Shown piece after piece: positions 34,201 to 61,800 of a DNA stretch of 64,000 nt. The position numbers and the translations under genes were made by a program. The DNA is from Oikopleura dioica (Eukaryota > Animalia > Chordata): the NCBI GenBank assembly GCA_907165135.1, contig OU015567.1, forward strand, positions 13,392,001 through 13,456,000, in the 5' to 3' direction. The notes under the pieces were generated by a model. The model was not told the origin of the DNA. It worked only from the letters and a program-made list of their open reading frames with translations, and ran no database searches. Within the stretch, counting starts at the first letter, position 1. The number at the start of each line of letters is the position of its first letter.

Positions 34201-35647
34201 TGCAAATGTACGTATACTTGGATCTCCCGTCGACTTTTTGAAAACCGCCGTAAAATATTCTGATCCAAGCAGGAGAAATCGCCGGAAAGTTTTTCTGCAA
34301 TCTATTTGCGGGTCATTTTTGGCAAGTTCAAAGTTGGTTTGACAAATTGAAAGACCCGTAATTAGAAAGTGAGTGCTGAGATTGACTGCAAACGTAGATA
34401 TTGGGAAAGCGACGACTTCCGGTTTTAGTTTTCTGCTCTTGAACGATCTTTTCAAAGGTTTTTTCGTGATCAAGTAAGATTCTTAATTTTCAAAGCGTTT
34501 TATGGGGAAGTGGCTCGAATCGACAAAATAATTGCGACAAATAATTCGAATTCTGCAAAAAAAATTTTTCAAAAATCTGATTGGCCTACCGACCGAATGC
34601 GGACATTTCCAAAGTTTTACCAAAATTTCGGATGAAATTGTCGCATTTTTTGACGATTCGTGCCTCCTCTTATTTGCTTATTCTTTCCAGGGAACAGCAT
34701 TTTAAACCCTTGTCGAAGGATAATTTGTATACTTAAGGATATAGCCTATGAAATTGAACTTTCATAGCGCCTAAATGCGACGTCGGATCATTTTGTTTCA
34801 AGCGCAATCCTATCTAAACATGTACGCAGAACTTGATTCTGGTACTTTTTTAAAAATTTTCATTTGAATTTTTCTCTGTAGAGCGTTTTGAAATCTTACG
34901 ATCGCGATTCCTCGAAATTTTTACATTAAATCGGTCGAGTTTTTTTGATAGAAAAGTAATCTAGACCCTTATCTACAATATTGTGGGTTCGGTTTTCTCT
35001 TATCCCGTCAAAAACCGATTTTAGAGCTATTTCCGTGAGGCTTCCTCGGCGCGTGAATAGTGTAAAAAGCGCTGCGCTGGGTGCTCAATCTTTCGACTCC
35101 TCTTTCCCGAGAGAGTGCGCGCGTTTGAAAGAGCGCTCTGATTGGTTGGACCCAAAAAAGCGCGCATGGAAGAAAAACAGTAGCAAGAAAGAGGAAAACA
35201 CTAGAATGAAAATTTGGCCGAGTTTGATAATTTTTCAGCCACAATATTCTAGTTTAGCATCATGCTAATGCAGTCATTGGTTTAGTTTTAGCGATTTAAT
35301 GTAAATATTTCGAGAAATCGCGATCGTAAGATTTCAAAACGCTCTACAGAGAAAAACTAAAATGATTTTTTTTTTAAATACCAGAATCGAGTTCTGCGTA
35401 CATTTTTAGATAGGATTGCGTTTGAAATAAAATCATCCGACGTCGCATTTAGGCGCTATGAAAGTTCAATTTCATAGGCTATATCCTTAACATAATCGCT
35501 CCATCCAGAATAAAATGTGACGATGAAACCCTAAAAATTTAAAGGCATTCCAAAATCGTTCAATAAAGAATTAATTCATACAGCGATCCAAACTCCTGCG
35601 ATGAAGCTCTTTTTTGAAAAGCTGCCAATACTCGACCCCTCTAACAT
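31295..35647 (-). CDS. DEG/ENaC (ASIC-like) ion channel subunit, multi-exon; ends approximate
   Basis: TM1 and post-TM1 VWIA/GFIVTFYSGWSDYVK/YTNYPSTR; RRFPNIYVCS; CDFNYADC...YGYCLMYN; TM2 YTVVDFLSDLGGTVGLFLGLNLFALV. Confidence 0.85.
33841..34665. repeat. Two degenerate copies (about 33841-33990 and 34510-34665) of an internally palindromic ~150 bp repeat in DEG/ENaC introns
   Basis: Shared GCTCGAATCGACAAAA...CGACAAATAATT and AAATCTGATTGGCC...GAATGCGGACAT; each copy ends with TTGTCG motifs inverted relative to its start. Confidence 0.6.
34737..35486. mobile_element. 750 bp TTAA-flanked TIR element (Kolobok-like MITE) coinciding with a GA-AG intron of the DEG/ENaC gene
   Basis: TTAA 34733-36 | GGATATAGCCTATGAAATTGAAC ... 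GTTCAATTTCATAGGCTATATCC | TTAA 35487-90. Inverted arms of about 200 bp. Confidence 0.92.
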
Positions 35648-36486: not shown

Positions 36487-36865
36487 CGTTGAACTTTCCC
36501 TGCTATAGATACAGAAACTCGAGATTCGGTCCGGGTTTCCCCGTTTATTATGCGTGCACAGTTTCCAAGGGTACAGTCGAGCGGTCCAAGCGGTCTTCTG
36601 CGGATGGATTGGCTAACGGGCGGTACTGAACCTAAAGTTCCGTTAGTACTGGTCGGGACAGTTCTCTTTAATCAAGGTCGGGCCTAGCCTCAGGATTCCT
36701 GAGCTCCTACCTCGCCGGATCTCGGTGCGAGTCTGGCGAATCCAAACTGCACCTGGTCAGCGCGATAGTGGCCTTTCCTAAGGGCGAGTCGCCGACTCCC
36801 CTATTACTCGTCAAGGGACCGCTGTCCTTGGCAGCTGTCTCCGAGACTGGGTATCACCCTTAACG
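36487..36865 (-). repeat. 3' LTR (379 bp)
   Basis: CGTTGAAC...CCTTAACG on the plus strand; AATAAA on the minus strand near 36544-36549; direct repeat of 50017-50395. Confidence 0.95.
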
Positions 36866-36890
36866 TCCCCCTTCTTTACCTGAAATGCCA

Positions 36891-38233
36891 TTATCGTCGA
36901 TGGCCGCCTCTGTGGCCCCATCGTTTCTTTGCTCGTGGTTCGTCCCCTCTTCGGTCTTGGGCTTGTCTTTTGTACCCTGGGTGGTCAGGCGTGGTCGAGA
37001 ACCCGTTCTGCCGATACTCGATGTTAGAGCGTCCTCCGGTCATTACTGACCAGTCTCGCATGAAGTTTGGAAGTCGGTTGCTGCGACGGACTTCCCCGTT
37101 ATCCATGGTGAAGGCACGCAACCGGCCATTGTCCCCGACGGTGACGAGGTTGGTTCGTTGATAGTTGTCGAAGGTGGCTATGCGCGAGATTCGCTTCAAA
37201 TCCGATTCTCTCGTGAGAAAATCGTAAAGGCTATTAAGCCTCCATCGGTCTACTGTGAGTAGGGCGTCGCGATAGTTCTTCATTTTCTCCGCGTTCTCGT
37301 TAATCGCGTCACGGGTGGCTTCCGCCCATTCCAATACTTCAGCTGTTCCGCCCTCGGTTGGATAGTTATCGACCTGAAACACAAGGTAAATCAGCTGTGA
37401 CCAACTTGGTTCGTTTTACCTTCCCATTTAAGGACATCTCCGCGAGAAAATTGTCATAAGCGTCCACTGCAAACTGTGCGATTTGCGAACAGGTCACTTC
37501 CGAGCTTTTTCCTTGATAAGCTTTTCGACTGCCGCGAGAGAGTCCATATCTTGGAATACGACTCTTGTGCCCGTCTCTCCGGTGAAGCCGACTGCGTAGA
37601 CGAATCGTACGTGGAGGACAAATCCCTGCATTTCCGGCGGCCCCTTCAGCGTCAAGGCGAACAACTCCTTCTGCGCCCAGTTCAGGAGAGCAGCGAATGG
37701 AGGCGAAACAGGCAAATGCACTCGCTATAATTGCAAGGTAAAATTAAGTCCGTTTTTGCCAAACTTACGTTCTCTGGTAGAGCGCATACTCCTCTGTCCA
37801 CTTCGCTCATTCTAGTCATCCATCGGTCTAGATATTCGAGGAATTCTTTAACCTCCGGTTTCGATCTAACTTTGCCGACGAAGCTGAGTTGTTCAAATTC
37901 TCGCATGAAGCTTCCGGGTCGGATTCCCGCTTTTAACTTGAGGATGATCGCGTCGTCCTTCGAGTCGGAGCGTTGTTGTTCCAATTCGGCAATCTGAGAT
38001 TTAGATGCCAATTTATTTTCGTCGATTTGATCCTCGACTTCGAGAAAGCTTGGCAGGAAGCCAGCTTTCGAGGCCGAGCCGTTATTGGCTGCGGTGGATG
38101 ACTCATCCATTTTTTGCGACTCATCCTTGTCGGGAGTTTCTGGAGCTCCGGAGTTTTCTTCGGCGATTTTTACGTCGCTCATTTTAGCCGCCAGTGATTG
38201 GTTCGCTGTGGTTGGTTTCCCGACAAAGACCAT
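36891..38233 (-). CDS. Retrotransposon cargo gene S1 (sense strand, intron-containing), unknown function
   Basis: ORFs 37682-38233, 37494-37721 and 36891-37382 are linked by GT-AG introns 37725-37768 and 37374-37419. The junction near 37475-37530 is unresolved (short GA-AG or GT-AG intron, or frameshift). Confidence 0.6.
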
Positions 38234-38304
38234 GATTCAACCGTCTAAAAGTGATATTTTTTAGAGAAGCTGAGGAGCTGAGGCATGTCCGCACGAATTC
38301 TGCA

Positions 38305-39287
38305 ATGCTTGCCTTACAGGCGAATGCAGCTGGTAGAAATTACGATTACAGTCAATTTGAATATAATCTACAATCGCCACACATGCGAAGATCTCAACGT
38401 GTGCCCGGCTACAAAGCTAGATTTAACAATATTGGTTTACTCCGCAGGGCATTCGATTCGCCTGGTCTTACTGAGGCGGTTCTTTTTACTGGCACTTTCA
38501 CCGCCAACGCGACTTTTAGAGGTAGTTACGAAACAGTATAAGTTTTAGGAATCTAAATGTATTACTAGATCTCGACCACCCGGAGGGTTTACGACTGCCT
38601 GTACAAGTGAAAGTTATTGGCATGGACACGCACAACTCAGTGGATTTCCGCGACATGTTCGACGCCTTCTGTGAAGCTGTTTTCGATCTGAAGGCGGAAA
38701 TGGACGAAAACCCTCACATTCGGTTAAAGATTACGCCTGATATGCACACTTACGCGTTGAGGTGACATTTCTTATTCTTAGCGCGAACATAATATCATTT
38801 TTATATAGAAATCTATTAAACCGAGCCCTGACGTGCTTGACCATGACATCTGACGAAGCGCTGGACTGCCTCGAGCGAACAGGTGAACAAAACGAGTCGA
38901 GGGGTGGTCGAACTAAATTCTTTTTTAGGGTTCTACTCGTTCGAAACTGCCATCCAGACTGGATCCTTTTCCACGTTTGGCTTCGACAAATACGCTATGC
39001 TTTACCTTTTTGTCTACTCGTTCGTGAAGGTGTGACCGGGTTCGTTCTCGTGGATCACTAAATGTTGATTTTAGAACATGCATCCCTCGCGATCTGGTGT
39101 CTCTCGTCGCCATATTCCCGCTCTACTTGTGTTCAAAGCCGAAGCAGGGGACAACGAAGCGTTTCTTACCCGGTTGCAAAATTGCGTAAGAATTTTCGGC
39201 GATCCCAGCCAGCTCCTCAATTTGACTAGCGTCTCCCGAGCTAATCGTGATTACGGTATTGTCCAACTCATTGTGACCATCTCCTGA
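38305..39287 (+). CDS. Retrotransposon cargo gene B1 (antisense, 5 exons, about 265 aa), unknown function
   Basis: GT-AG introns 38522-38568, 38762-38808, 38883-38928 and 39030-39074 (45-47 nt) all preserve one reading frame. Start codon uncertain. Confidence 0.72.
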
Positions 39288-39305
39288 AAGATTCTTTTAG
39301 TTGCC

Positions 39306-39942
39306 ATGCGATTTCGACCCGACCAGAAGTTCTGGACGCAGCATCAACTTGACGCTCTGCGATTTTTCGCCATGTATCTGTTTCTCAACAACGAGGTTCA
39401 CCAGTTCTTGGGCAACGTAAGTACCTTGAGCGTAGACGGCGCACAATTCATCCAGCATGGAATTTCCTGACGTTGACGATTCGTTAAGGACGAAATCACC
39501 GCCAACCTCTGCCTCGTTATCCACTGGATGGTCAGCCATCCTGAATCCCGAAGACTCGTCCTAAAATATGGTTTTTACCGATTATTGGTACGATATGTTT
39601 CGGGAGCCTCTGCTATTCCACTACCTTTCCGCACTGTAAAGTACCAAGGGGTAATCTACACGGCTTTCCCCTATGATTGCTTCCAGATGGAACGTAAGTA
39701 ATTACTTGATTGACGATAGCTAAGATTTAATTTTAGGGATGTGTAAGCTCGTCCCTCAAGGTTTGGGCGAGTTGTGGGTTGGAACGCTGTTAGTACAACG
39801 CTATCCTAATGGTTTGCCACGTGATGGGAAGATTCCCGAGTTCCCTATTCCCGAGATCGACGGTCGTCAGCCCGCTGGCAACGCCTGCCTACCGATACAT
39901 CCCGATACGTTGGACCTTGCTCGCTTATCTTTCCAGAATTAA
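39306..39942 (+). CDS. Retrotransposon cargo gene B2 (antisense, 3 exons, 173 aa), unknown function
   Basis: ATG 39306; GT-AG introns 39417-39488 and 39694-39736 in frame; preceded by TTCTTTTAG 5 nt before the ATG. Confidence 0.72.
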
Positions 39943-40072
39943 CGATTACCTTTACATTCCAAGCTCGCTGCTGTTCTGCGTTAAATTTCTGCATTCTGCG
40001 TACTTCTCTTGCTAATTGTATGCATTCGAAGGCTTTTTCCGATTTCAATGTTTCTCGTGCTAAAATACATTC

Positions 40073-40354
40073 CTACGAATTCGACTCTATAAAATAAACT
40101 CTGAAAATTAATGAAATCGTTCCTGAACTTCCGTCCTTTGTTAGTTCTTCCATTATCGCTTTTGCCAAGCCGGCTTGGCCAATTGCGCCGGCTTCTTTCA
40201 CGGTCGCCATGAGATAGTCCACGCCTTTGTTGAAGAAGAAAGATTGCTTCGATGCAAATCTTTCCGTTTGCGCGAGAGGCTTCAGGCGCTTTGGGGTCGA
40301 AAAGCAGAAACCGTTGCAGTCCTCTTCGCGGCTGCGCTTTTTGAAACTCTCCAT
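40073..40354 (-). CDS. Possible cargo gene C1 (MESFKKRSREE...TPKRLKP); may splice further to ORF 39845-40048
   Basis: ATG directly after CCTTAG-A; basic NLS-like N-terminus; downstream splicing not resolved. Confidence 0.4.
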   Translation of the reverse strand: MESFKKRSREEDCNGFCFSTPKRLKPLAQTERFASKQSFFFNKGVDYLMATVKEAGAIGQAGLAKAIMEELTKDGSSGTISLIFRVYFIESNS

Positions 40355-40718
40355 TCTAAGGGCGTAAATGTTTACGTAAACCGTTTTAGTTTTACAGAGA
40401 ACGAAAAATTTCAGCGAAGATTATGTTTTGACTATGTTTTGCGCGCTTCTTTTTCGGTCTGCGACCTCTTTTCGCTATCTGAATTCCCACTTTTAGAATG
40501 CATTTCCGTTTAAGTGCTTACCAGTTTTTAAATTCGGTTACGCCATCGCCTGCGACGTCCATTTCGTTTAGGAGCGCGTTTATTTCCGCTTCCGCCTTCT
40601 TTCGCTCTTGGTAGTTCCGTTGGAGATTATATAGAGCCACGATCAATCGCTGGCGGAGGTGAGCCTCATTCGACGGGTTTTCCAGCGCTCTCTAAAGTAA
40701 AAATTTTTTAAGTTCTTC

Positions 40719-40988
40719 CTAAATCTTTGACTCATTTATACATACCACGTCATGAAACGAGAGTTTCTCTCCACATGTCGGGCAAGGAACCTCTTTGTCG
40801 TCAATGATCGCACCGATCCGTTCTCGGAGGCATGGAAAACATGCGTCCAAGCATCGCTGGTGATTGTTCGTTCCGACCAGTTGCGGCTGCTTCTTGTCAT
40901 CAAACGGCTCGTGGCATTCTTTACAGAAGTCCGATTTTAGCAGCAAGTTTTTCCATGGTTCTGAGACGAGTTTCGGTTTCTCTGACAT
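40719..40988 (-). CDS. Cargo RING-finger-like small protein (89 aa from first ATG)
   Basis: CKEC-x-P-x-L-x-H-x2-C-x3-C-x2-C-x15-CPTC, a degenerate RING arrangement. Confidence 0.6.
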   Translation of the reverse strand: MSEKPKLVSEPWKNLLLKSDFCKECHEPFDDKKQPQLVGTNNHQRCLDACFPCLRERIGAIIDDKEVPCPTCGEKLSFHDVVCINESKI

Positions 40989-41102
40989 CTTCTCCGACTT
41001 CGAGAATGAATTGAGCGAGAGTAACCGTTTATTAGTTTTAGACGGTCGCCTGATTTTTCGATCCACGCAACTGCCGCCTCCGTTTTAATTTCTTCGAGGC
41101 TA

Positions 41103-42234
41103 ATGCCGCGCGCGAAGCCAGCTTCCCGTGGGTCGCCTATTCCGACCCGTGGTCGTCTCAAAAGGAAAGGGCTTCACGATTCTACCGACCCCCTGATGAC
41201 TTCTAGCGCTCCAGAACGGAAACGAGTCAAACAAGCACTTGGTAAGTCGCATATCTTGACTTTTCTAAGCGTATCCCAGCAAATTCGCGGAATACCCTTG
41301 CTCTCAAGGCCTGCAAACGGAAACTTCATGAGCTCGAACACACTATTTCTCAGTCCCCAAACGCTAAACGACCATTTTCGAAGAAGACGGATTCTCCCGG
41401 CGAGTACAGTCCCATTCCCGCAGATCCAACCCCATCGGAAAGCGGGTATATGGATTTATCTCTTTCCTCCGGGTGCAGTGACCCTCTTCTTGGCTACATC
41501 GATCAAGCGTTTCGCATCGCCAAAAGTGCCTCTAGATCACGGTCTTTCACGCAACCGGAGTTGACTTGCTCTCCAACGAACTTTCGTCCTGACTTTGGCG
41601 ACATTACACCATATGGGTAATGAAAGACCATTTTCCGTGTCTAAACTTCTAACGTATTTAGGCGCAAACTATCATCTGTCGCTGCGTTTTTCCCCGAATT
41701 TGACCACACTCTTCTCTGCCTCTTCCGGCCCGAAAATGACTTGTACGTTCCCCACAAGCTCTACGATTTACGAAAGCAGTTCTGTGGTCCGTATTCTTCG
41801 ACCGAAGTAGAACAGGCCCGGGCTAATCAACCGTATTCTTGTTTCGAGCCACTATTCCGGTAATTGACTTTACGCTTGCCTGGAAACTAATGGTATTCTT
41901 AAGCTATCTTGGACAGTGCTTGGAAGCCATGGAGATGGGCATATTCCTCGAGTTTGAACTCAAGGTTCCGCCTCGCGCTCTGTTTCACCCGCCGTCTGAT
42001 TTCACAGAAGAGCAGGTCGTGTTTGGCAAGCAGCTTGCCACAACCGTAACCGTCTTTATGGAGCATCTCCAACGGTATTTCATGGTCGAGCAGCTGATAG
42101 CCGCATTTGATAGCGGTGTGATACGCGCGAACCATTCTGAAATATCCTCTGCTGCCACCCGCCTTGTTCATCTGTTTTACGATCTGCATTTCCAGGGCGA
42201 GCGCCCTCCTTTTTCGCTTTATAAATCGCTCTGA
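41103..42234 (+). CDS. Retrotransposon cargo gene A1 (antisense, 5 exons, 323 aa) with basic N-terminus
   Basis: GT-AG introns 41242-41279, 41446-41478, 41617-41661 and 41860-41903 give 972 nt in one frame. Confidence 0.72.
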
Positions 42235-42251
42235 CTGTCCGTTACCATCAA

Positions 42252-43955
42252 ATGTCCTTGTTTTATTTACCACAGTTCATCCGCTCATATTACAAAATGC
42301 GCAAAGCCGAAATTGAAGAAGAAACTTTAGAATTCAACTCTCCGAATGGTGCTTTTCTGCCGAATTCCGTTGCGACCTACCGCGACGAAATCCGCGACAT
42401 CGAAGCTCAACTCGACCAACTCTCTTACGGAAAAGGACCGAACTTGCCCGGGATACCAGCAATCGACCGCATCATCATCCGCCGCACTGAGAAGAGGCTC
42501 CAGCACCGACTGAAGAAGGTCCGCAAGCGTGCCGCTGAGTGGAAACCCCTTCCGAGGCCCAAATGTAACGCCAGCCCTGTCAAATCCGCTCTCGTCTCTA
42601 CCTGCTTCGACCTTTTCGGCCGCATCTTGTGGCTTGGCCTCTGGGTTGGGCTCCTTTTCTGGCTGCTCAAGGTCACCGGCCTGTGGTATCTTCTCGTGTG
42701 GATATATCAAGCCTTCTGTTTTCTCGTCGATGGAGTGGTAAGTGTTCATTTTATTCACCGGTGATAAGCGTTTTTCCAGCTCTGGTGCGTCTCCTGGCTT
42801 GGAGGCGATGATGGAATTGAGGAACAGCCTCACGTCTCGTCTTTCAATGTCACTTCCTTAACGGAGGAAACCGTTGCCACTGTCAGTGAATCCGCCGTTG
42901 GCCAGTACGTCTCTGCGATCGATTTCTCCCAGTTGAAGAAGAAGTTTGTTCCTGAATGGTTGACTTCCTTCTTCGATCGGTTCTTCGGGGATTCCGCCGA
43001 ATATTCTTTCTTCCCGACTGCCGAGGAAGTCTCTAAACATGTACGAGTGCCGGTCCGAGAACGGCGATGGATAAACGACGAATTCGAAGATGTTCCTACT
43101 TTGTACAATCCTCCCCGACGATATCCACCCAATCGATACGATGTGTGGCGGCCCGATTCTCAGTCCGACAACAATCCCGTCGACGACCCTGAGTGGCGAT
43201 TCGGAGGGGCAAAGCCTATCGTTTGGTAAATATCCATCATAAATTTTCATTAAAAACATTTTTTATTGTATTGGTAAAACGATAAACGTATTCTTTAGGT
43301 TCGGGTGCATCTTCGGATTCATATGTTTGCTCACTATCGGAATTTGCTGGCGTTTTGAGGAATGTTGCGAAGCGATGGCTGGATGCTTCCCTAAAGCCGA
43401 TGAGAGCAATCGAGCACGAATGAGACGCGAAGAGAGAAAGAACGCCAAATCGAAACACAAGCTTGATAAGCTTACCGCAGCTGCTGAAATCCGCTTCAAC
43501 GAGCTCAATACGAAACAACAGATTTACAACACCCAAGCTTCCTTTCTCATGGACAATCTCACCAACGCTCAGGCCGTCGTGCACCAGCAAACAGTCTCCG
43601 GGGGCCAAGTTTCCCCTCAAGCGCTAGCCCAAGTACAGAGTGCCTTTGACGCGCTCCAAAAATTCCAGGCAAATGGTCCCGAAGACCTCGTTCCTGAGGA
43701 AGAAGAGAAAACAGGCCTACTGGCCCGAATTAAACGAGTTGATCCACTAAAGGTAACGATTCCAATTAATCTCTAATTTCTGACCAAGATGTTCAGCGCG
43801 TATCGGCCAAGAAAACTTCGAAAGACGACCAGATTACTGTCGCAGTAACTACCAACGCCCCTACTCCATCATCGAGTGCTACTGTCGTGACAAACGAGCC
43901 TACTGCTCCAGTTAATGCTAACGGTGGGCAACTTCCCCCTGCATGGGGCAACTAA
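42252..43955 (+). CDS. Retrotransposon cargo gene A2 (antisense, 4 exons, about 500 aa) with two hydrophobic segments and a coiled-coil-like region
   Basis: GT-AG introns 42738-42779, 43226-43298 and 43753-43796 join ORFs 42252, 42933 and 43327. Hydrophobic ILWLGLWVGLLFWLLKVTGLWYLLVWIYQAFCFLV and IVWFGCIFGFICLLTIGICW. Start is ATG 42252 or 42297. Confidence 0.72.
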
Positions 43956-44136
43956 CTTATCGGATACCTTTTCCTGCGCCTTCTCTCGTTAACACTTACC
44001 CTGCCTGTACATATGCTTATTGCGAAATACATGCGAAATTACAAACTCGTTAGACTACTGCATTTTCGACAAGTGTGAGCTACAACGATTAAGCGAGATT
44101 TTGATTTTTTATTTTTGAGGAACTGAGGAAATGGGG

Positions 44137-47100
44137 TTACACGTAAGGGTCTGGCATGTTTTTTCCATATGGCCATATTTTCTTATCCGTAACTGTGCTT
44201 CTCGGCTTCAGATGTTCCACCATCGACAACTCTTCTACTTCGTTCAGAAATACCAGCATCGCCTTTGTGTACTCGTTCATGTCGTCTTCGTTCCTGTTGT
44301 CGCCATCTACCACCGCTTTTATGCTTTTGAAGCACCAGGTATAATGCTTAATATTCTCGAGCCCCATTCGCTTCGTACCTATCTGACCCGACATCCAATC
44401 TATACCATTCGGAATTTCCGCTGTTTTTGTGATCTTAAACCATGGGTGCCTTTTATTTTTGTCGTAATTACCTTCTATTAATACGAAGTCACCCAATTTG
44501 ATCGGACTTACCACTTCTCCGCCGTACTTATCCCCTTTTTCGAATGGCTTCAGAACAAGAGGGTCCCTGATTCTGCCGGGCGTTTTCAGTCTCGTCTCCG
44601 CATTCCTTGATCTGTTTCTAGCTTTGCTAACGAATTCCCGTATCTTTGCCAGATCCACGTTTATCGATTTGCCGTCAGATGTCCTTCTATCGGTCCAGAC
44701 TTCCATTGGCGAGTATCCATGGGCACTCACTGTCCGATTCACCGAATCCGCTACCGTAAGTTCCATTATGTTTGGACTTCTTTTATTCCAAATTTCGGCT
44801 TGAAGCGTTGGGCTCAGCTTCGCAATCCGGCTGTCGAGCGGCGCGAGGTAGTTCTTCGAAGTGCTCGGTTTGCTTGGAAGCACGAATTCGACGTTCAAAT
44901 CTTTCCAGAACTCCCGATTTCTGATGCTCTTATTTACGGAGCTTCCGTCCATGATCACTTTTACCTTACCGTTTAAACGAAGGCCTCTGTCGAAATCGTT
45001 TATTGCTTTCAGCATAATTTCCGAGCCCTTCACACTATTGTTTTCTGAATTTTTTACATTGTATATTCGTGAGTAGCCTGACAGAATGCAGGAGACTATG
45101 TAAAACTTCATTGTAGATTCGTCATGATTTCTGTGTGCGTTCCTCGTGATAACGTCGGCCAGCAGCACCTCTCCGACATGTTTTGCATCCAGGTCATCGT
45201 ATTCGAGTTCCTCTGTCACGATTTTCTTCCGATTTCTCTGGTAAGTGCATGAGAGGCAATTGTTGACGACGTTGGCGGCTATCGCATCCAGTTTCGGAAA
45301 CCAGACTTCGCTCTTCATGAGGTTTTTCAATCTTGTGATTGTTCCGCAGTTACCTCGGTGGAAGGCTTTCGCCACCGCCGGTCCCAAAGCTTCCGGAATA
45401 ACAATCGGGTTGCAGATTCTTGTGCCCACCATTATTTTTCTTTTTCGTAGAATCTTTGGTTCCCCATCGCTATCCAAGGTTGTGCTCCCTCGCAGGCTTT
45501 CCGCGCGTCTGTCTTTTGGTCCTGGCATTTTTCCTTTCGGACTCTTGGACTCGATCACCCTGCTGAGAATCGGATCCCCATCTTGGATACGCCTGATCAA
45601 GTGGCGATCCCGAAGGAATCCTACTCCATCGAATGCCAGTATCTCTTTTTCGAAGTCTTGCTCAGTCTTCCGGCTCTTCTGCGACTTCCTGACGTCTCTT
45701 TTAACTTTGCTTCGCGTGACAATTGCGTCGACTTCTGCCGCTCTTCTTTTCCAGCTGCTAACTAAACGTGTTTTCAGGGATCCTTGAAGGGCCCGGAACG
45801 CCAATTCGTCCTCGAGCGCGAAGACCTCCTCGAATCGCTCAAAATCCACCGCTGGAATCGATACGAAGCTGCTAATATCCAACCCTTCTTCGAACAAGCA
45901 GTTCAATGAATCGCTGGACGAGCAGATCGCGCAGTTGTTGTCACAGTCCTTCAACAGGTAATCCGTGCGTGAGATAAAGTCCGCTAAATCAATCTGGGTA
46001 GACTCACCTTTTTCGTACACCACCTCGACGTCGAAATTTAATAGTTTGACGATTTGGTCGTTTATTCGTTTATCGAGGCTCAGCTCCTTTCCCATGCGGG
46101 CTCTATCGAAAAGCTTCTTCACGCTGAGAGAGTCAGTAATGATTACCACCGGTTTATCCACAAAATCGATTTCCCAGCAAAATGCGAGAGTTGCCGACAA
46201 GATTCCATGGAGTTCCAACTGGCAAGAGCTCCACTGCGTTTTTAGTTGCGCATCCCCTCTCTTTCGTGACCAGAGTTTCACGATTTGCGTTTTATCCCCC
46301 TTCTTTTGATAGAGATAACCTCCTGACCCTAGATTCGAGCTGTCCACGACTAAATACGTATCTAGGTCTTTTTCAATTGGATATAAGCTAATCATCTGGT
46401 CATTAATTGCTCTTGCCAACTTGTTGTAACACTCCTTCAGCTCGACAGTCCACGCTACCGCATCGCTCAACTTCTTCTGGCCGGAAGCTGCTTCGTTCAA
46501 CTTCCACATCAACTCCGTCCGTCTTGGCAGGCCTATAGATAGGTAATTTATGATGCCGATGTAGCGTTTTAGCTGTTTTACTGTCCTAATTGTGTCTGGG
46601 TTCTCCGCTAGCGCTTTCTTCAAAACGTGATTCGACGGGCAAATCTGACCATTCTTGACCTTTCTACCTAGAAGTACTATTTCTTTGGACGCGATGACGC
46701 ATTTAGAGCCTTTGAGCCGCAAATTTCTATACATTAATGTCTTGAAAACCTTTCTTAGTCGGTCTTTTAGTTCTTCGAAATTACCCGCTACTATTAAAAA
46801 ATCGTCCATGTAAATGCTAGTGTATTCTAGGTGATCGTACATAATTCTAGTAATCATCTCGCGGGCCAGGACTGGGCTTGAGACCCAGCCCATCGGAAGT
46901 CTTCGATATGCTAATTCACCGACTTTCGGATGAAGGATGACGAAGTGCTTCCAGAGCTCCTCCTCAATGTCAAAACAGTGGAACATCGAACTAATATCCA
47001 CCTGTACTACGTAACCCTTCCTCGTAAACGGAGCAGATAATTGCAAGATCCGTTCAATACTGTCTGTCTGTCTTGCCACGTGTTCCGTCTTGTCATTAAT

Positions 47101-49923
47101 GCCACTTCTAGCGCAGTCTCCGACTACCCTGACGTTCGACGCGGTTAATTCGACATTCGCCTCGCCGTTGGGACCTTTCTTCGAGACTCCGAAGAAACTC
47201 ATGTAGTTTGCAGCGGTCATGTGCTTCGGCAACCTTACCAGCACGCCCTCCGCCGCTTCTTGATCCAGTTTTTCTTCGATAGCTCGTGTTACGCTCTCTG
47301 GTAAGTTCTTCCCATAACCGATTGGTGCCGCTTTCGGGCTTCTGTCCGAATTACCCTCGTCAATTTTAGCATGTACTGTAAAGTCTCTGTCGGCAACGTG
47401 TCCGATCGTGCCTTCGAACAAAGGTGTGAACTCATCCAACAGCGCGTTCATCTCTTTCTTTTCGGAATCGTTCAAGACGTTTCCAAAAGGGTCAATTTGT
47501 ACATCTTTCCGTGAGTTTTTCTCCCTATTCTCCGCGTGAATTCGTTCGAGCTTTCTAGCCCAAGCGCGGTTCCCATCTGGGTCGTATGCCTTTGTTGGTT
47601 CCATGCCTGCGAACGAGCTTCGATCAAAAATATGGTCGTGCAAGGTAGGGTTCCGTTCCACCGATTCCATGAGCATTAAATCCTGGCTGTTTATAGGGGT
47701 TTTATTAGAATTCACCCAGACATCTCGTATATTCTTATTTCTGACCTCGACTATTAAGTCGTCGTCATTCCTGCCGCCTATCTTCACTTCAACTCTGTTT
47801 CGAACGAATCCATCAACGCCGAGGATGATCGTGTTGCCTTTGCCTGCGTAGACCCTGCAATTTTCAAATTCTAATTTTAGATTTTCATTGAACTCTATGT
47901 CGAAATCTGCAAGATAGTTCTCGAAATGCATCCTGCCGCCGCTTGCTACTTTAGCGCTTGCCGGGCTGCAATCTGTAAGTTTAACGTTTCGGCTGCATCT
48001 ATGCATTAAAATTTCCACGAAACTTTCTGGAACTACTGATATCGTGGCGCCAGAGTCTATTAAGACTTTATAGCTTTCTAACTCGTTCGATTTATTCGCA
48101 ATTTTAAAGTGGATGTCGAATCGACCTCTATTTGTAGTCGTTGCCGCTCTGCACTCATCTATTCTAGAAAAATTTGTTAATGAATTCTCTTCAGTGATCG
48201 CCTTACTGATGCCGCATGAAGAGTATTCGTCGACTACGTGAACTTCCTCCAGTGATTCTTCATCCGTCTCTTCTTCCATGTCGTTCCTAAGTAAGTCTTC
48301 CATCAGCGCTACGAGAACCGAGCTTTCTCCGTCGTCCTGGTCTAAAACAAATGCCCGGTAATCCTGGCCTTTTCCCCGCACTTTATGTGACCGGTCGAAC
48401 GCCTTTTTAAACGCATTCTTTGTCTGCCTAACTCTATTATTTCGGTTACCTTGGTTCCTCGGTCTTGGGAACAAATGGAAGCATTTCTTCGTGAGCTTCT
48501 CGTTCGCATACTTGAGTTCACTAGCGGTGAGGGTAAGGCTTGTTTTCGAGTAAACCTCCCCCGTTTTTGTGTCTACGATGAACTTACTGTTATTTAGGGC
48601 GAACTTTGAATCCAGCTTCTTGGTGCGGTTGGGCAACACGGCATTAACTTCCTCCTCGTCTGATCCGAAGACTGACGAAGTGCTGCTGAGATCCTCTAAG
48701 ACGTTTACTTTGTCGTACTTTTCTTTCTTCCGTGAAACCCTTTTCCATTCTGAATAAACCGATTCTAAAGCTTTCCCCATATCTCCACCGTCACTGATGT
48801 CAGCCGCCAAGCGGATGTGTTCCAGCATCACGTGGCCTTTGGCATTCGTGATTTTATCCATTTCATCAAACACTAAACGCTTATTGCATAAGAAGTCTCT
48901 TAGGCCTACCTCGGCGAAGTCTATGCCGGCTTTCTTCGCAAGCTTCTGTGTAATCTCATCGAGATTCTTCTTACCAATGAAGCTAATCGTAAAGAAAACT
49001 GCTAATGTATCCATGAACGGCGTCCATTTTTCTGAAGGTGATCCTTCCACATTATAATAAGCATTTAAACGAGTTGATGTGGTGTTTCCGAGTGTCGTCC
49101 CTTTAGGGAAACGTTCACTTCTTTCATGCCGGACTATAAACTCTGCCAGGCACGATTTTATGTTATCAAAACAATTCGAAGCCTTGGCGCCACTGAACTT
49201 GCCGAAACAGAAGCTGCGTAAGATCTCAATGTTTCGCACGAAGGTATTAACGCTCGTATCCTCGCAGTTTAGTTCCAATTGGCACCGTAAGTATTCCCGC
49301 AAATTGACTTGTTCCCCGTCACACACCCCCTTGCGGCTGTTCGGCTCAACCGCCACGAGTATTATCTTTCCAACGCATCTTACGACATCTCTCATGTGTT
49401 CAGTTGGTGTTTTATTTCCATCCGTTGCTGGCTTGAACACGTTCGAGAAGTCCGACACGGCGAGATATGGAAAAAATGTTCCCATGAACCATTCTTTCTG
49501 CTTTTGCACGGTAAAATCCTTCTCATCGTAGTGTTTGCTTTTTACAAACCCTTTTTTATCGTCACTAACTTTTATATTCTCTAAGCAATCCAGCCCGACA
49601 TATCTTCCTTCCTTTTGGAACGATTCAAACTCTTCCAGATTTATCGGGATGCCAAGGTCTCCCGACCAATTTGGCCCCGTGACTGAGTCAGAAACTCCCC
49701 AGAGCAGCGGTACTTTATCTTCGTGTCCTAGCATCGGGGACTTTGGGAGCTGTTTTCTTACGGTCTCATTTAGATGGAGGGTCAACTCCCTGTACCAGTC
49801 TTTGGCCTTTCTCGCCCTTGTGTGTCCATCTGAATCCACAAAGGCGAGGCGAGGGATTTTGCTGTCCCCCGCACAAAACCCGAAGGGTTTTACATCTTCG
49901 AAGATGCGCGACGAGAAGCTCAT
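44137..49923 (-). CDS. pol: Gag-Pol polyprotein (1928 aa, single ORF)
   Basis: Protease VLIDSGATISVV; RT VQVDISSMF...LPMGWVSSP...YMDDFL; RNase H LVVDSS...LELHGI...ITDSLSV; integrase H..C..CLSC, LADVIT, IMDGSS. Confidence 0.96.
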   Translation of the reverse strand: MSFSSRIFEDVKPFGFCAGDSKIPRLAFVDSDGHTRARKAKDWYRELTLHLNETVRKQLPKSPMLGHEDKVPLLWGVSDSVTGPNWSGDLGIPINLEEFESFQKEGRYVGLDCLENIKVSDDKKGFVKSKHYDEKDFTVQKQKEWFMGTFFPYLAVSDFSNVFKPATDGNKTPTEHMRDVVRCVGKIILVAVEPNSRKGVCDGEQVNLREYLRCQLELNCEDTSVNTFVRNIEILRSFCFGKFSGAKASNCFDNIKSCLAEFIVRHERSERFPKGTTLGNTTSTRLNAYYNVEGSPSEKWTPFMDTLAVFFTISFIGKKNLDEITQKLAKKAGIDFAEVGLRDFLCNKRLVFDEMDKITNAKGHVMLEHIRLAADISDGGDMGKALESVYSEWKRVSRKKEKYDKVNVLEDLSSTSSVFGSDEEEVNAVLPNRTKKLDSKFALNNSKFIVDTKTGEVYSKTSLTLTASELKYANEKLTKKCFHLFPRPRNQGNRNNRVRQTKNAFKKAFDRSHKVRGKGQDYRAFVLDQDDGESSVLVALMEDLLRNDMEEETDEESLEEVHVVDEYSSCGISKAITEENSLTNFSRIDECRAATTTNRGRFDIHFKIANKSNELESYKVLIDSGATISVVPESFVEILMHRCSRNVKLTDCSPASAKVASGGRMHFENYLADFDIEFNENLKLEFENCRVYAGKGNTIILGVDGFVRNRVEVKIGGRNDDDLIVEVRNKNIRDVWVNSNKTPINSQDLMLMESVERNPTLHDHIFDRSSFAGMEPTKAYDPDGNRAWARKLERIHAENREKNSRKDVQIDPFGNVLNDSEKKEMNALLDEFTPLFEGTIGHVADRDFTVHAKIDEGNSDRSPKAAPIGYGKNLPESVTRAIEEKLDQEAAEGVLVRLPKHMTAANYMSFFGVSKKGPNGEANVELTASNVRVVGDCARSGINDKTEHVARQTDSIERILQLSAPFTRKGYVVQVDISSMFHCFDIEEELWKHFVILHPKVGELAYRRLPMGWVSSPVLAREMITRIMYDHLEYTSIYMDDFLIVAGNFEELKDRLRKVFKTLMYRNLRLKGSKCVIASKEIVLLGRKVKNGQICPSNHVLKKALAENPDTIRTVKQLKRYIGIINYLSIGLPRRTELMWKLNEAASGQKKLSDAVAWTVELKECYNKLARAINDQMISLYPIEKDLDTYLVVDSSNLGSGGYLYQKKGDKTQIVKLWSRKRGDAQLKTQWSSCQLELHGILSATLAFCWEIDFVDKPVVIITDSLSVKKLFDRARMGKELSLDKRINDQIVKLLNFDVEVVYEKGESTQIDLADFISRTDYLLKDCDNNCAICSSSDSLNCLFEEGLDISSFVSIPAVDFERFEEVFALEDELAFRALQGSLKTRLVSSWKRRAAEVDAIVTRSKVKRDVRKSQKSRKTEQDFEKEILAFDGVGFLRDRHLIRRIQDGDPILSRVIESKSPKGKMPGPKDRRAESLRGSTTLDSDGEPKILRKRKIMVGTRICNPIVIPEALGPAVAKAFHRGNCGTITRLKNLMKSEVWFPKLDAIAANVVNNCLSCTYQRNRKKIVTEELEYDDLDAKHVGEVLLADVITRNAHRNHDESTMKFYIVSCILSGYSRIYNVKNSENNSVKGSEIMLKAINDFDRGLRLNGKVKVIMDGSSVNKSIRNREFWKDLNVEFVLPSKPSTSKNYLAPLDSRIAKLSPTLQAEIWNKRSPNIMELTVADSVNRTVSAHGYSPMEVWTDRRTSDGKSINVDLAKIREFVSKARNRSRNAETRLKTPGRIRDPLVLKPFEKGDKYGGEVVSPIKLGDFVLIEGNYDKNKRHPWFKITKTAEIPNGIDWMSGQIGTKRMGLENIKHYTWCFKSIKAVVDGDNRNEDDMNEYTKAMLVFLNEVEELSMVEHLKPRSTVTDKKIWPYGKNMPDPYV

Positions 49924-50016
49924 CGCATATGCTCAGGAAAACGTCCTAGCAGACGAGGTTCAGTACGCAGGGGGAAGTAAGGTTCGTGCCGCTCAGTAAC
50001 TGAGCTTCAGTCACCA

Positions 50017-50395
50017 CGTTGAACTTTCCCTGCTATAGATACAGAAACTCGAGATTCGGTCCGGGTTTCCCCGTTTATTATGCGTGCACAGTTTCCAAGG
50101 GTACAGTCGAGCGGTCCAAGCGGTCTTCTGCGGATGGATTGGCTAACGGGCGGTACTGAACCTAAAGTTCCGTTAGTACTGGTCGGGACAGTTCTCTTTA
50201 ATCAAGGTCGGGCCTAGCCTCAGGATTCCTGAGCTCCTACCTCGCCGGATCTCGGTGCGAGTCTGGCGAATCCAAACTGCACCTGGTCAGCGCGATAGTG
50301 GCCTTTCCTAAGGGCGAGTCGCCGACTCCCCTATTACTCGTCAAGGGACCGCTGTCCTTGGCAGCTGTCTCCGAGACTGGGTATCACCCTTAACG
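50017..50395 (-). repeat. 5' LTR (379 bp)
   Basis: Direct repeat of 36487-36865; on the minus strand it is followed immediately by the TGG-initiated PBS. Confidence 0.95.
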
Positions 50396-50897
50396 TTCAA
50401 CAATCAACGGTTAATCGAGAACTAGAAAACTATTCAAACTAAACACTTCTAATTGTTAAATTCGTGTGTCTAAAATTGGAGTCTTCTTGAAACATAGTTT
50501 TGGACAACCAAAAATAAGTTTTCTCGTTCATGTACTCAACCTGGACCCGCTACAATGCCTTCATAGAACTGGCTATTGGAGAATCTAATGTGCTCAAAGA
50601 AATCGTCAAATTTCTTGCCAAAGAACTACCTAAGGTCGGTCATTCTTGCATTTGAGTCAGAACATGGTGAATAATGAACAAAGCCACTTTTGGTTGAGCT
50701 AGGGCTCACGCAAACGGCCAAGGATAATGAAAATGCCGATTATATCAATGAGAACTTAATTTACTTTTCAATATTAATTATCGTCATGACGCAAATAAAA
50801 ATGGCCAAAAAGAATACACTCTTCCGCGGACGCGTTACAAATCCATCAACAAATGATCAAATGTAAATTGCCTTTTTTTCATCGCAACTTATATTTT

Positions 50898-54689: not shown

Positions 54690-55759
54690 AAGCTTTCACA
54701 ACTACAACGACGACGACAACAACAGAAGCTACTACAACCAAAACGACAACAACTTCGCCAACTACAACAACGACGAGTACAACAACAACTACAACAACAA
54801 CAGAAGCTACCACAACTTCCACATCAAAAACGACAACAACGACACAAGCGACAAGTACAACGACTACGACAACGGAGGCTACAACAACTACGACGACAAC
54901 AACAACAACGACAACAACCTCGTCCTCTTCCCCAACATGTCCGCCCCTGACTTCTAGCTTCGGATTAACAAACGGTTCTTGGAGCTGTGATGGAAATGAA
55001 GAAGATGACAACTGTCGATGGATTTGCGACTATGGAATCCCCACTGGAGCTCGTTCAAAATGCCTCGCTGAAAAAACAGGCGACTGGAAAGCTCCGAGCG
55101 ATAAAGTAAAGGCTAAAGCTGACTGCTCGCTCTGTGAAGAAGTTGGACCCGATTTGACACCTACCGATGGAAGTAAGTAACATCGCTAGATAATTTTTAA
55201 ATTAGTTCATTAGCTTGGACCTGTCAAAACAAGAAGGCAAAACGAATTTGCCAGTTAAACTGCCCAGACCGAAAACGAGCTGTTTTCGCAGAGTGCATCG
55301 TTGCTAAGAACCAAGCATTCGCGATCAACACGAAGATTTCGCAAGAAGAAAATACATGCGAGCCGGTGGTCGGACCTTGTGACGTCTCCCTTGTCACGGT
55401 AATTCATGCGCTCAATCGTAATTGAATCTTGGTTTTGTATACGTAATTATACCAATTCAAGTTTTATTGCTCTATCGTTTCCTAGCACAGCGTGGTTATT
55501 AGTTAACTCTAGCCATCAATCAAATGCGGAAAATTATTTATCTCAGGAAAACGCACCCGACAACGCTAAATGGAATGGCATCGACTTCTCGGCTGCATTT
55601 GACTTCTCGCAGACAAGCTCTGATCCAAAGATCGTTCTTTGGGGAAGACGAAAGTGCAACTCTGGCGACGGCTTCCACCCCAAGACTCAAATCATGTGCA
55701 AAATTACTAAAAAGGGAGCAAAATGGATTTTCAAGGGCAACGCGCAGAAAAACTGTTGA
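54690..55759 (+). CDS. Mucin-like Thr-rich protein with three small Cys modules; 5' exon not resolved
   Basis: ACA/ACG/ACT-rich tract 54698-54920 encoding poly-Thr, then WSCDG...CRWIC, WTC...CQLNC and RKCNSG...MCK...W...C* joined by GT-AG introns. Confidence 0.7.
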
Positions 55760-58853: not shown

Positions 58854-61800
58854 ATGAGGAAGTACGCGCTGCTTGCAGCTGTTGCAAGCTCGGCGAATGT
58901 TTTTGAAAGGATAAGCAGGAGAGCAAGAGTCGACTGGAAGGATCTCATTGATAAGGTATGAGAAATTACATCCATTAAATATAATTCATTTATAAGGGGC
59001 CGTATTGGGACCCATCTTTTATGGACTACCAGGGGGATGAGCCTCAGCGAGTCGGAAATTCTGAAGCATTTGTCTTCGACAGAGATGATTTTCTCAATGA
59101 TGCTCCATCTTATGATAATGACTTTTTCGGAGAGAGCGAGGTCAAGCCAATGTCTCTCGTCACTGGCGAAAGAAAAGATCTTGGAGACGACACTGATGTC
59201 TGTTGGGAGAGCTGTGATGCACCACCAGAGTGTCTTTGCAAAAACTGCTGTGTAGAGAAAAAAGTAACGTGTCCGGTCGACGTTGTCGTTGCTCTTGATG
59301 TCTGCCACTGTGATAACAGCCGATGGATCAAGACAATCGAGTTTGTCACGCACTTGACTGAAGAATTCCAAGAAAAGGTCGATGATTTCCGATTAAGCGT
59401 CGTGCTCTTCAATGAGGTCTCGGAAGTTGCATTTTCACTTGCTGATTGGGATCCGACATGGACGTTGGAGGATGTTTACCAAATATTGGACAATCACGAC
59501 CTCATCGACTTCTATGGGCGGGGAACTTTCCTCCATACCGGGGTAGAATTCGCGATGAAACAATTTGACCACGATCTGAAGAGAAGGGCATTGTTGGTTT
59601 TGTACTCGAATGGTCTTTCGCAATCCAGTGACACTGAAGTGCTTGACGTCGTGAACAAGTTCCCGGGGCCAAAAGTCGTTTCCGTCACAGCTGATGCTCT
59701 TTACGATAACTGCGACGGACCTCTCTGCCCCCACAAGCAGCTACTGAGTGACATGACTAACAATATGGTTCTTGATGGTAGTGGACGAAAACAGTTTTGG
59801 GCTGCAAAGGAAATCCGAAAAATTGTCCAAGAGTCTTTTGTCTGCCATGAGCGAGCTTGTGAATGGTGCGACTGTGACTGCGATTTCTCCTGTGAAAATA
59901 CAGAGGCTCTCGCAGGAGTTACCCGAGATGAGTGTCAGAACTGCCCGAAGATTCCTTGCCCAGTGGACATCATCTTTGCCATCGACATGTGCCACTGCGA
60001 CCCGCTCCGAATGGAGATATCCAAGGAGTTCATCGCTGCTACTGCTGACAAGCTCATTCCTGACTCTGACGCTCGCGGTCAAAAAGTCAGACTGTCTGTT
60101 GTTCAGGACAGTTTAATAAGATTCCTGACAAAATACTTTATTGCGTTTCTATCTTTAGCTAGGGCGTAATTTCCTACTTAGCGATAATTAAGTTGTCAGA
60201 ATTACTGTTAGACCGCACTTAGTTCAATGAAATTGCCGTGACATCTACTCATTTTGTCGAGTTCAACGGAGACGCAGCCGATAAAGTTAGGGAAGTGGAT
60301 TTATATGGCCACCTGCGGTAACCGGTCCGGGTCTTTTTGTGGTCACACCAATTATTTCCGTTGTGACCTTTCATCGACTAAGCTTATAAACACTCCCAAT
60401 AAAAGCCTCAATGACTTCAAGGAAAACCTTAAGAATTTGCCATTTGAACAGTTTAAGGGCATGGGCACAAAGTTAACTACTGGTATCGATGAAGCAAGAA
60501 AGACTTTTCAATTTGAATCGATGTCTCAGTCCGACCGTGATCGGCTTGGAATTTTCACCAATAAGGTTTTTACTTTTTTTATCCTGAAAATTAATAATTT
60601 GGTAGACGGAAAAAGTTCTCATCTTGCACTCTAATGGGCACTCAATGGACTCGCGAGTCGGAATCATGAAGACAATTGATGGAATCAAGCAAGACTTTGA
60701 AGTAAAAGTCATTCCTGTATCAGTGGATGCTCCAAGCTTCAAATCGCATGATCCTACTGCCCCTGACGCTGTTTTTTTGAACCGAATCAAGGATCAAAAA
60801 CTTTCTAACTTTGTGGATGGAACTCAATGTAATTAAAAACAAAATATCACGAGTTAAAAAATAATTTCAGTAGAACAAGCTGTCAATGCTATCGATTCTT
60901 TCATCATGGACATGGAGTGTGACGACATCAGATGCGAAAATCCTTGTCCTTTCGAAGAACGAGAGTTTGAAACTTCGCCAGAGCCTGCACTTTGCCCAAA
61001 TGTTTTCGGCGAGTTTAACCCGATCAACCCCGCTGAAATGGGGAGCGATTTTGATAGAACTGATGTCGATGGGCCAAATCCAAGCAACCCATCTGAAATT
61101 TACGATTCTCCGTGCAAGGCATTGAATCTGGCCTTTATTATTGATGGATCAGGTATAAAAAACAAGCATCTTCGTATCATGTTCTTTGTAGACTCCGTTA
61201 CGGGCCGACCAAATGGAGGAGAATGGAAAACTGTCCGAGACTGGGTTTCGGCGGTGATTGACGAGCTTGATCTTGAGTCGCGCCCCGGAATTTCCAACGT
61301 CGCTGTCATGCAGGTGCTTATTAAAGTCTTGGCGCTCGTTAACTATGATCCTTCAAGTATGCCGCGAATCACGAAATCGTTCAACAAAAATGGTGGCCGA
61401 TGGGATGTGATCCTCAAAGGCGATCCTCAACTGAGCTTCGAGACGAACTTGCTCGTTGGCGACAGTTCAACACCACAACTAATACATACAAGGTGAGGTT
61501 AGCGTTATACAGACATGCTCATGGGATGGTTCAGGCTACGACCGCAATGATGGATTTCCACGACGACAATCTCGCCCAGCTCTCCGAGAATCAATACAAT
61601 GTTCTTGTCTTGATTTCTGATGGCGAGCATCGTGATGCTTGGCGCAAGAAACAGGTAAAGTGACTTTTTATTTGAAAATATAGGTTCCATTTAGACGGAA
61701 ATCGACCGACTGAAGCAAACTTTCGACATGGTTCAAGTGGTCAAGATTCGGGAAAACCGCGAATTCCACAACCTCGAAGATTGGCAAGAAGATAGCACGA

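Follow-up and report, generated by a model that had tools for sequence, protein, structure and literature searches.

What does a Ty3/gypsy retrotransposon without an env gene carry at the position where env is normally found, and what might the product do? The question is raised by a locus of the chordate Oikopleura dioica. The window, which is the whole stretch of DNA analysed here (64,000 nucleotides (nt); assembly GCA_907165135.1, contig OU015567.1, positions 13,392,001 to 13,456,000 of the forward strand), contains one intact Ty3/gypsy long terminal repeat (LTR) element at 36487-50396 on the minus strand, with no env on its sense strand. Directly 3' of pol, on the opposite strand, lies A2, a predicted spliced gene for a membrane protein of about 500 amino acids (aa), preceded by a second gene, A1. 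An earlier note on this DNA had singled out this pair; it understates the locus, where the stretch from A1 to the 3' LTR holds four more gene models. What stands firm, and is unusual, is the cargo of six genes. The sequence supports this architecture well; ideas on the function of A2 depend on motifs.

A predicted spliced antisense gene at the env position

A2 is on the plus strand, tail to tail with the gag-pol stop at a distance of 181 nt. Its first exon (42297-42737) encodes a basic N-terminal region and most of a long hydrophobic segment that starts at 42624; an alternative ATG lies upstream at 42252. The second exon (42780-43225) holds the end of this segment and an acidic, Cys-free loop with an NVT sequon (42846-42854) and a furin-like RERR motif (43056-43067). 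The third (43299-43752) encodes a strong membrane helix, a Cys pair at 43363, a basic patch from 43417 and a predicted 70-residue helix, and the fourth (43797-43955) a T/S/P/A-rich end with the motif PTAP (43899-43910). The three predicted introns are of the GT-AG type and 42, 73 and 44 nt long, and the open spliced frame of 1500 nt gives 499 aa from the ATG at 42297 or 514 aa from the ATG at 42252. Exons and introns differ in GC content in A2 (0.52 versus 0.29) as in A1 (0.52 versus 0.37).

The gene model was recovered by a blind, splice-aware search for the longest spliced path from ATG to stop under three splice rules, each compared with 1000 dinucleotide shuffles; the strictest rule was fixed after the introns had been seen, and two looser rules guard against bias. 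Exactly the A2 exons were returned under all three rules, with 515 codons, a length that no shuffle reached under any rule (0/1000 each; maxima 217, 274 and 393 codons). The strand opposite A2 yields paths of at most 141, 141 and 270 codons under the three rules, and the antisense strand of gag-pol, under the strict rule, paths of 157 and 124 codons. A2 is an open, antisense four-exon gene model, its splicing predicted, far beyond what chance provides, and its position and size agree with the earlier description.

A1 (41103-42234, plus strand, about 334 aa) has predicted exons at 41103-41241, 41280-41616, 41662-41859 and 41904-42234. Its N-terminal half is basic and of low complexity, its C-terminal half is helical, and it has no membrane segment. 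The blind search returned the whole gene under two of the three rules (0/1000 shuffles) and a partial path of 232 codons under the strictest (2/1000). The A1 stop lies 17 nt ahead of the first A2 ATG, the spacing reported before, and TTACCACAG does precede the second ATG (42297): it begins at 42267, and its AG ends 21 nt upstream of that codon. This T-rich AG acceptor (42264-42275, plus strand) needs no upstream donor and, given host operon biology, is a candidate trans-splice site for A2.

A conventional env was sought on the sense strand between pol and the 3' LTR, among 25 minus-strand frames of at least 60 aa, and none was found; the longest frame has 184 aa. Hydropathy reaches at least 1.6 in three of the 25, two of which lie opposite A2 exon 3, the third being inside gene C in another frame, and Gag-Pol itself peaks at 1.26. 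The sequence thus supports A2 as an element-borne membrane protein at the env position, with A1 as its operon-like partner.

The element and its cargo

The two LTRs, both on the minus strand (5' LTR, 50017-50396; 3' LTR, 36487-36866), are each 380 nt long and identical across all 380 nt, so the insertion is very recent. The primer-binding-site position (49995-50016, minus strand) begins with TGG immediately after the LTR, and a polypurine tract (36867-36879, minus strand) abuts the 3' LTR. The flanks carry a target duplication of 4 nt (GAAC, exact) or of 5 nt with one mismatch. A single gag-pol open reading frame of 1928 aa (44137-49923, minus strand) has the order protease, reverse transcriptase (RT), RNase H, integrase. 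Two LTRs, primer-binding site, polypurine tract, target duplication and this domain order together identify a Ty3/gypsy element. In Pfam, RT and RNase H match above cut-off, protease weakly (E 0.067) and the integrase zinc finger below cut-off (E 0.0007). An arrangement of two separate elements flanking host DNA was considered and rejected, given the identical LTRs and a polypurine tract directly next to the 3' LTR. The element was analysed as one copy only.

Some details of the termini and transcript signals stand apart. The element ends are not TG..CA (36487-36500 and 50380-50396); read on its own strand it starts with ACGTT, and AACG closes the LTR before the TGG primer site. An AATAAA at 44108-44113 (minus strand) lies 24 nt past the gag-pol stop, where the gag-pol mRNA might end while genomic RNA reads through, and an AG acceptor lies 22 nt upstream of the gag-pol ATG.

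Residues 800-1300 of the gag-pol product have 19 protein matches, the top three 61%, 45% and 32% identical; the second of these (45% over RT-RNase H) is the nearest named relative and comes from Oikopleura dioica. This match makes O. dioica or a cryptic relative the likely host, with which the short introns agree. Related loci number 52 in metagenomes, the three close ones being no longer than 3.1 kilobases (kb) and confined to pol, and none were found in viral contigs. The six cargo proteins match nothing in the 52 metagenome loci, and no paralogy was found among the proteins of the element.

Between pol and the 3' LTR lie 7270 nt, of which six gene models cover 6611 nt (91%) with no overlap, in the order C(-), B(+), E(-), D(-), A1(+), A2(+) and with 18 predicted introns of 38-73 nt. 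C and B (71 nt apart) and D and A1 (114 nt) are head to head, B and E (130 nt) are tail to tail like A2 and gag-pol, and A1-A2 and D-E are in tandem. Shuffle tests covered A2, A1 and B; the models of C, D and E were built by hand. Gene C (36891-38233, minus strand, about 405 aa, three introns) includes one predicted GA-AG intron (37511-37474) and an Arg/Gly-rich basic end. GA donor introns have been reported in Tor3a elements (PMC4402516). Gene B (38305-39942, plus strand, about 430 aa) has six or seven introns whose exact junctions are less certain: the blind search was significant under two of three rules and gave 53/1000 under the strictest, and the junctions differ among rules. The gene B exons tested have no Pfam family match. 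Gene E (40073-40354, minus strand, 93 aa), a single exon downstream of D with an AG acceptor 1 nt before its ATG, is the weakest of the six models. Gene D (40432-40988, minus strand, about 151 aa, two introns) encodes a RING-like Cys/His pattern (40746-40988) followed by a helix, and is a possible small ubiquitin ligase; none of its matches to Pfam RING families reaches the cut-off (E 0.03-0.75).

T-rich AG acceptors lie 1-61 nt ahead of six of the eight start codons examined as separate candidates, with another before the upstream A2 ATG and none ahead of the gene D start. Since operons of O. dioica are processed by leader trans-splicing (PMC11067885), A1-A2 and D-E are likely operons. Genes C and D together have five predicted introns on the genomic-RNA strand, so that the full-length RNA would have to escape splicing; gene C is a candidate RNA-export factor. 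The GC content of the cargo (0.48) compares with 0.46 in gag-pol and 0.39 and 0.42 in the flanks. At third codon positions C, D and E are rich in A and poor in T, as is gag-pol, and differ in this from three of four host frames, the fourth having only a slight A excess.

Membrane topology and motifs of A2

Two hydrophobic segments flanking a hydrophilic loop had been described for A2, and both are present. The first extends over about 45-48 residues, has a Lys close to its midpoint and could be one helix or two. The loop is 140 aa, acidic and without Cys, with 41% P/S/T/D/E. The last membrane helix is strong, spans 17-20 residues and is followed by about 185 aa, with a Cys pair (CC) about 5 residues beyond it and a basic patch of 10 Lys or Arg (K/R) starting about 22 residues beyond it. 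The NVT sequon noted in the loop is there and carries no weight, as 57% of loop shuffles contain a sequon; the RERR furin motif at 43056 is mildly informative (chance 5.8%). The tail, previously called coiled-coil-like, models as one 70-residue helix; its heptad positions are hydrophobic in at most 9 of 16 cases. T/S/P/A make up 50% of the tail, which also has an NLT sequon. PTAP falls within the last 18 residues and is the only P(T/S)AP among the seven proteins of the element; such a motif arises in 1.9% of shuffled A2 sequences, before correction for the ten patterns scanned.

Topology was judged from hydropathy and charge only. The 43 residues before segment 1 have 14 K/R against 2 D/E, and the 35 after it 0 K/R against 7 D/E, a switch that favours an N-terminus inside and a loop outside. 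At the last helix the charges decide little, with 2 K/R and 4 D/E in the 20 residues before it and 2 K/R and 3 D/E in the 15 after. Both the basic-to-acidic switch at segment 1 and the Cys pair that follows the last helix agree with an odd number of crossings and a cytosolic tail, by judgement somewhat the better bet; a hairpin in place of segment 1 would put the tail outside. The combination of furin site, hydrophobic peptide and long helix recalls a class I fusogen, a candidate that was rejected because no membrane anchor follows the helices.

Relatives and expression

Homolog searches used pieces of the proteins and depend on shared words or single-sequence scores, so that distant relatives can be missed; within A2, Atlas, exhaustive HMMER and folding were applied to exon 3 and the tail. 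For the A2 N-terminal half, 680 candidates yielded no homolog. Exon 3 gave a single match in an exhaustive HMMER search of 1.84 billion representatives, rejected as a 17-repeat scoring artefact, and no usable match in Atlas. The tail fold has no match in a viral structure library at E 0.001. For A1 exon 4, 159 longer candidates yielded no homolog, and the model (single-sequence, pLDDT 65) has no match among PDB folds at E 0.001. PDB sequence searches with A1 and A2 pieces returned 0, 0 and 1 matches, the last to an irrelevant antibody; PHROGs gave nothing and Pfam no family above cut-off for either protein. The earlier note held that clear orthology of A2 to a conventional host membrane protein would tell against it; within the limited reach of the searches, no ortholog in the host turned up.

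A1 exon 4 (41905-42231) gives a faint signal in Atlas, where 29 of 30 matches share the gamma-tubulin complex C-terminal family PF04130, with a score of 0.92 and a recognition value of 1637, below the bar of 2300. Pfam gives no PF04130 match even at E values up to 1, PDB sequences offer nothing relevant, and the fold search has no match. Two short stretches of this exon are reminiscent of conserved positions of the gamma-tubulin complex C-terminal domain.

Four RNA runs mapped on the element gave 1 read, too little to judge expression. In a second mapping, host exons were mostly below 90% identity, which indicates that the runs come from another lineage and so provide no gauge of expression; A2 was covered by none of these four other-lineage runs. 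Short diverged pieces of pol appear in two of the four (contigs of runs X7 and X8; 44436-47927), so related elements exist in that other lineage.

Comparison with known systems

The closest setting is that of the Tor elements of Oikopleura dioica, for which a passage from soma to germline has been proposed (Henriet et al. 2015, PMC4402516). Like the present element, these are Ty3/gypsy LTR elements with near-identical LTRs, a target duplication of 4-5 nt and an internal promoter (a presumed one in the present element), their third gene after pol encodes a membrane protein, and GA donor introns are known in them (PMC4402516). The proteins themselves differ. Tor env is on the sense strand, and its product has a C-terminal anchor and seven conserved Cys (PMC4402516). 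A2, by contrast, is antisense and interrupted by predicted introns; its loop lacks Cys, its tail is long, and five other extra genes accompany it. In terms of Tor3b/4b Env, A2 is neither a third gene in sense orientation after pol nor a protein with seven Cys upstream of a C-terminal anchor, having no Cys in the 140-aa loop and about 185 aa past its last helix. A2 also lacks the large structured ectodomain, behind a signal peptide or first helix, of F-type and gB-type errantivirus Env (with Cys bridges in the gB type), having only the 140-aa loop, no Cys and no Pfam match. Three further features of Tor3b/4b Env, an F-X-G tripeptide, a furin site and N-glycosylation, have counterpart motifs in A2; F-X-G occurs also in A1, B and C, and the sequon is uninformative by the loop shuffles.

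In flies, env-less elements use a FAST-like protein (bioRxiv 2025.03.14.642691). This sORF2/FAST protein of the MDG1 group resembles A2 as a membrane protein of an env-less gypsy element in which a helix is followed by a basic and helical tail, but has 63-107 aa and one helix and is often myristoylated, whereas A2 has about 500 aa and departs from the published screen on four criteria (bioRxiv 2025.03.14.642691). A2 falls outside the range of 60-210 aa with a single membrane helix, lacks an N-terminal MGxxxS/T and has 2 rather than at least 3 K/R over the 15 residues that follow the helix. It does have the membrane-proximal Cys pair in the tail, a candidate for acylation.

In orbiviruses, NS3 is a protein with two membrane helices and, between them, a luminal loop that is glycosylated; basic motifs precede the first helix, and its PSAP binds TSG101 for non-lytic exit (PMC7409164). 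A2 is likewise a two-segment membrane protein of an env-less agent, with a glycosylation site in the loop, basic motifs before helix 1 and a P(T/S)AP motif; it differs in its loop (140 versus 21 aa), in having no PPxY and in carrying its motif in the C-terminal tail (PMC7409164). Pfam and sequence searches found no homology between A2 and NS3; the comparison is one of working only. Vesta4 ORF3 of rotifers shares with A2 the lack of env homology, two hydrophobic segments, an RXXR and a coiled coil, but has 220-230 aa with Cys between the segments, whereas A2 is twice as long, antisense and Cys-free in its loop (PMC5408684).

By the features tested, A2 is not a Tor Env, not an F-type or gB-type Env and not a member of sORF2/FAST. 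By analogy, its layout would work most like that of NS3, and it has a loose plan in common with Vesta4 ORF3. The suggestion of a non-canonical envelope, taken to mean a fusogen, is weakly supported, given the Cys-free loop with its P/S/T/D/E content and the departures from Tor Env and sORF2/FAST. Cell-to-cell movement or membrane remodelling is still in play and gains a clue in the PTAP of the tail.

The cargo has a parallel in the plant elements Retand, Grande and RIRE2, in which a long region (2.9-6.6 kb in Retand) separates pol from the 3' LTR and holds antisense open reading frames, a common feature after pol in plant elements (PMC7264820; PMC11963269). These are mostly TRP28 and likely nuclear (PMC7264820; PMC11963269), and the Retand paper (PMC7264820) nowhere uses the word 'intron'; here, six genes with 18 predicted introns are spread over both strands, and one encodes a membrane protein. 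Among the titles and abstract starts that literature searches returned, none describes an animal LTR element whose two strands carry several spliced genes; Volff et al. 2004, the first account of Tor, and the supplement of Henriet 2015 lie outside that scope.

Possible functions of A2

[quoted passage not shown] A2 holds the sole P(T/S)AP of the element, and P(T/S)AP, PPxY and LYPxL late-domain motifs are absent from this Gag-Pol and from five related Gag-Pol proteins. The charge pattern fits an N-terminus inside, and the Cys pair and the patch of 10 K/R follow the last helix. In such a scheme, plus-strand RNA would arise from a two-way promoter between D and A1, and trans-splicing would split A1 from A2 and free the A2 mRNA. 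A2 would enter the endoplasmic reticulum via its first hydrophobic segment, leaving both ends cytosolic, and the Cys pair behind the last helix would be palmitoylated. The C-terminal PTAP might then be presented to TSG101 of ESCRT-I, giving a budding signal that Gag lacks; capsids could contact A2, bud into vesicles or out of the cell and be transferred between cells. As genomic RNA is on the minus strand, the introns of A1, A2 and B would be unseen by the spliceosome, and this antisense orientation would let them survive reverse transcription in each round of copying.

Several points weigh against this reading. PTAP is a single motif of four letters from a scan of ten patterns, of which three were late domains, and it lies in a tail rich in the same residues; after correction it is only suggestive, and no A2 relative turned up that could show it to be conserved. 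The charges beside the last helix nearly tie, and if the first segment were a hairpin the PTAP tail would lie outside. The long loop, the missing PPxY and the absence of sequence likeness all separate A2 from NS3. An exit protein alone also fails to explain entry into the target cell.

A second reading makes A2 the precursor of a FAST-like cell-cell fusogen, which is unlikely and could coexist with an exit role. A furin cut at RERR would release a C-terminal fragment made up of some 50 outer residues, a single membrane helix, the Cys pair, the basic patch and the helical tail. RERR is seldom met by chance in the loop (5.8%, as above), and what follows it is laid out as in FAST proteins, where a helix is combined with a palmitoylated Cys pair and a basic motif, with a precedent in the fish virus protein PMCV p33, described as processed to a FAST-like piece (PMC12945298), and further parallels in the FAST-like protein of the fly elements and in the segments, RXXR and coiled coil of Vesta4 ORF3. 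Set against these are the departures from sORF2 in size, helix number, MGxxxS/T and K/R count, the lack of a cystine loop, as the loop of A2 has no Cys, and a tail that at about 185 aa exceeds the 150 aa limit of the screen (bioRxiv 2025.03.14.642691).

In the other topology, with segment 1 as a hairpin, the loop cytosolic and the tail outside, A2 would be a stalked tether or attachment protein, or a shaper of an internal assembly membrane, and PTAP would be incidental. The length of segment 1, the Lys near its middle and the charge tie at the last helix allow for this, and the 70-residue helix, NLT sequon and T/S/P-rich end are as in outer stalks; the strong charge switch over segment 1 and the Cys pair right after the last helix oppose it and leave it improbable.

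The 7.3 kb block could also be host DNA, captured not long ago, with genes that are passengers and play no part in transposition. Its short introns, operon-like spacing and head-to-head pairs resemble the host genome, genes C and D retain introns on the sense strand, and A1 exon 4 weakly resembles, in its features, a gamma-tubulin complex domain of the host. The copy is moreover so young, its LTRs being identical, that open frames alone cannot show selection. The A1 and A2 pieces, however, have no homolog in a collection that holds O. dioica proteins, which pol did find, and both the GC content of the cargo and the third positions of C, D and E side with gag-pol rather than with the flanks and most host frames; capture is judged unlikely. 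That A2 is not expressed as a protein and its antisense frames are a by-product is hardly credible: RNA support was not obtained and no homolog was found, but no shuffle under three rules matches the frame, AT-rich introns fall exactly at its breaks, and six models tile 91% of the region without overlap.

The exit reading can be extended into a much bolder one, which is unlikely as a whole. The locus would be a complex retrovirus-like element of new build, an env-less chordate LTR retrotransposon whose six host-style spliced accessory genes amount to a small virus-like genome; A2 would drive ESCRT budding and then, cleaved by furin, cell-to-cell fusion, a germline route unlike Env or sORF2, and A1 might imitate the gamma-tubulin complex in reduced form and guide particles to the centrosome.

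Known exit routes of LTR retrotransposons are captured viral Env and small sORF2/FAST proteins, and a late-domain membrane protein of an env-less element, if true, would be a third. A recently mobile element that keeps six genes and 18 introns on both strands is an LTR element using the host's operon and trans-splicing style. Its sense-strand introns must not be lost from genomic RNA, which raises the question of unspliced RNA export. Automated annotation would probably label the cargo genes as host genes.

Surroundings in the window

Outside the element, host genes lie at 1734-3591 (LepA-like GTPase exons), 17844-19110 (Gly/Pro/Asp/Lys repeat protein), 24044-24823 (carboxylesterase-like exon), 54698-54949 (Thr-rich repeat) and 58985-60169 (VWA domain). 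Two nested sets of long inverted repeats, at 8328-9101 and 34733-35490, are 85-96% complementary and resemble small fold-back DNA elements.

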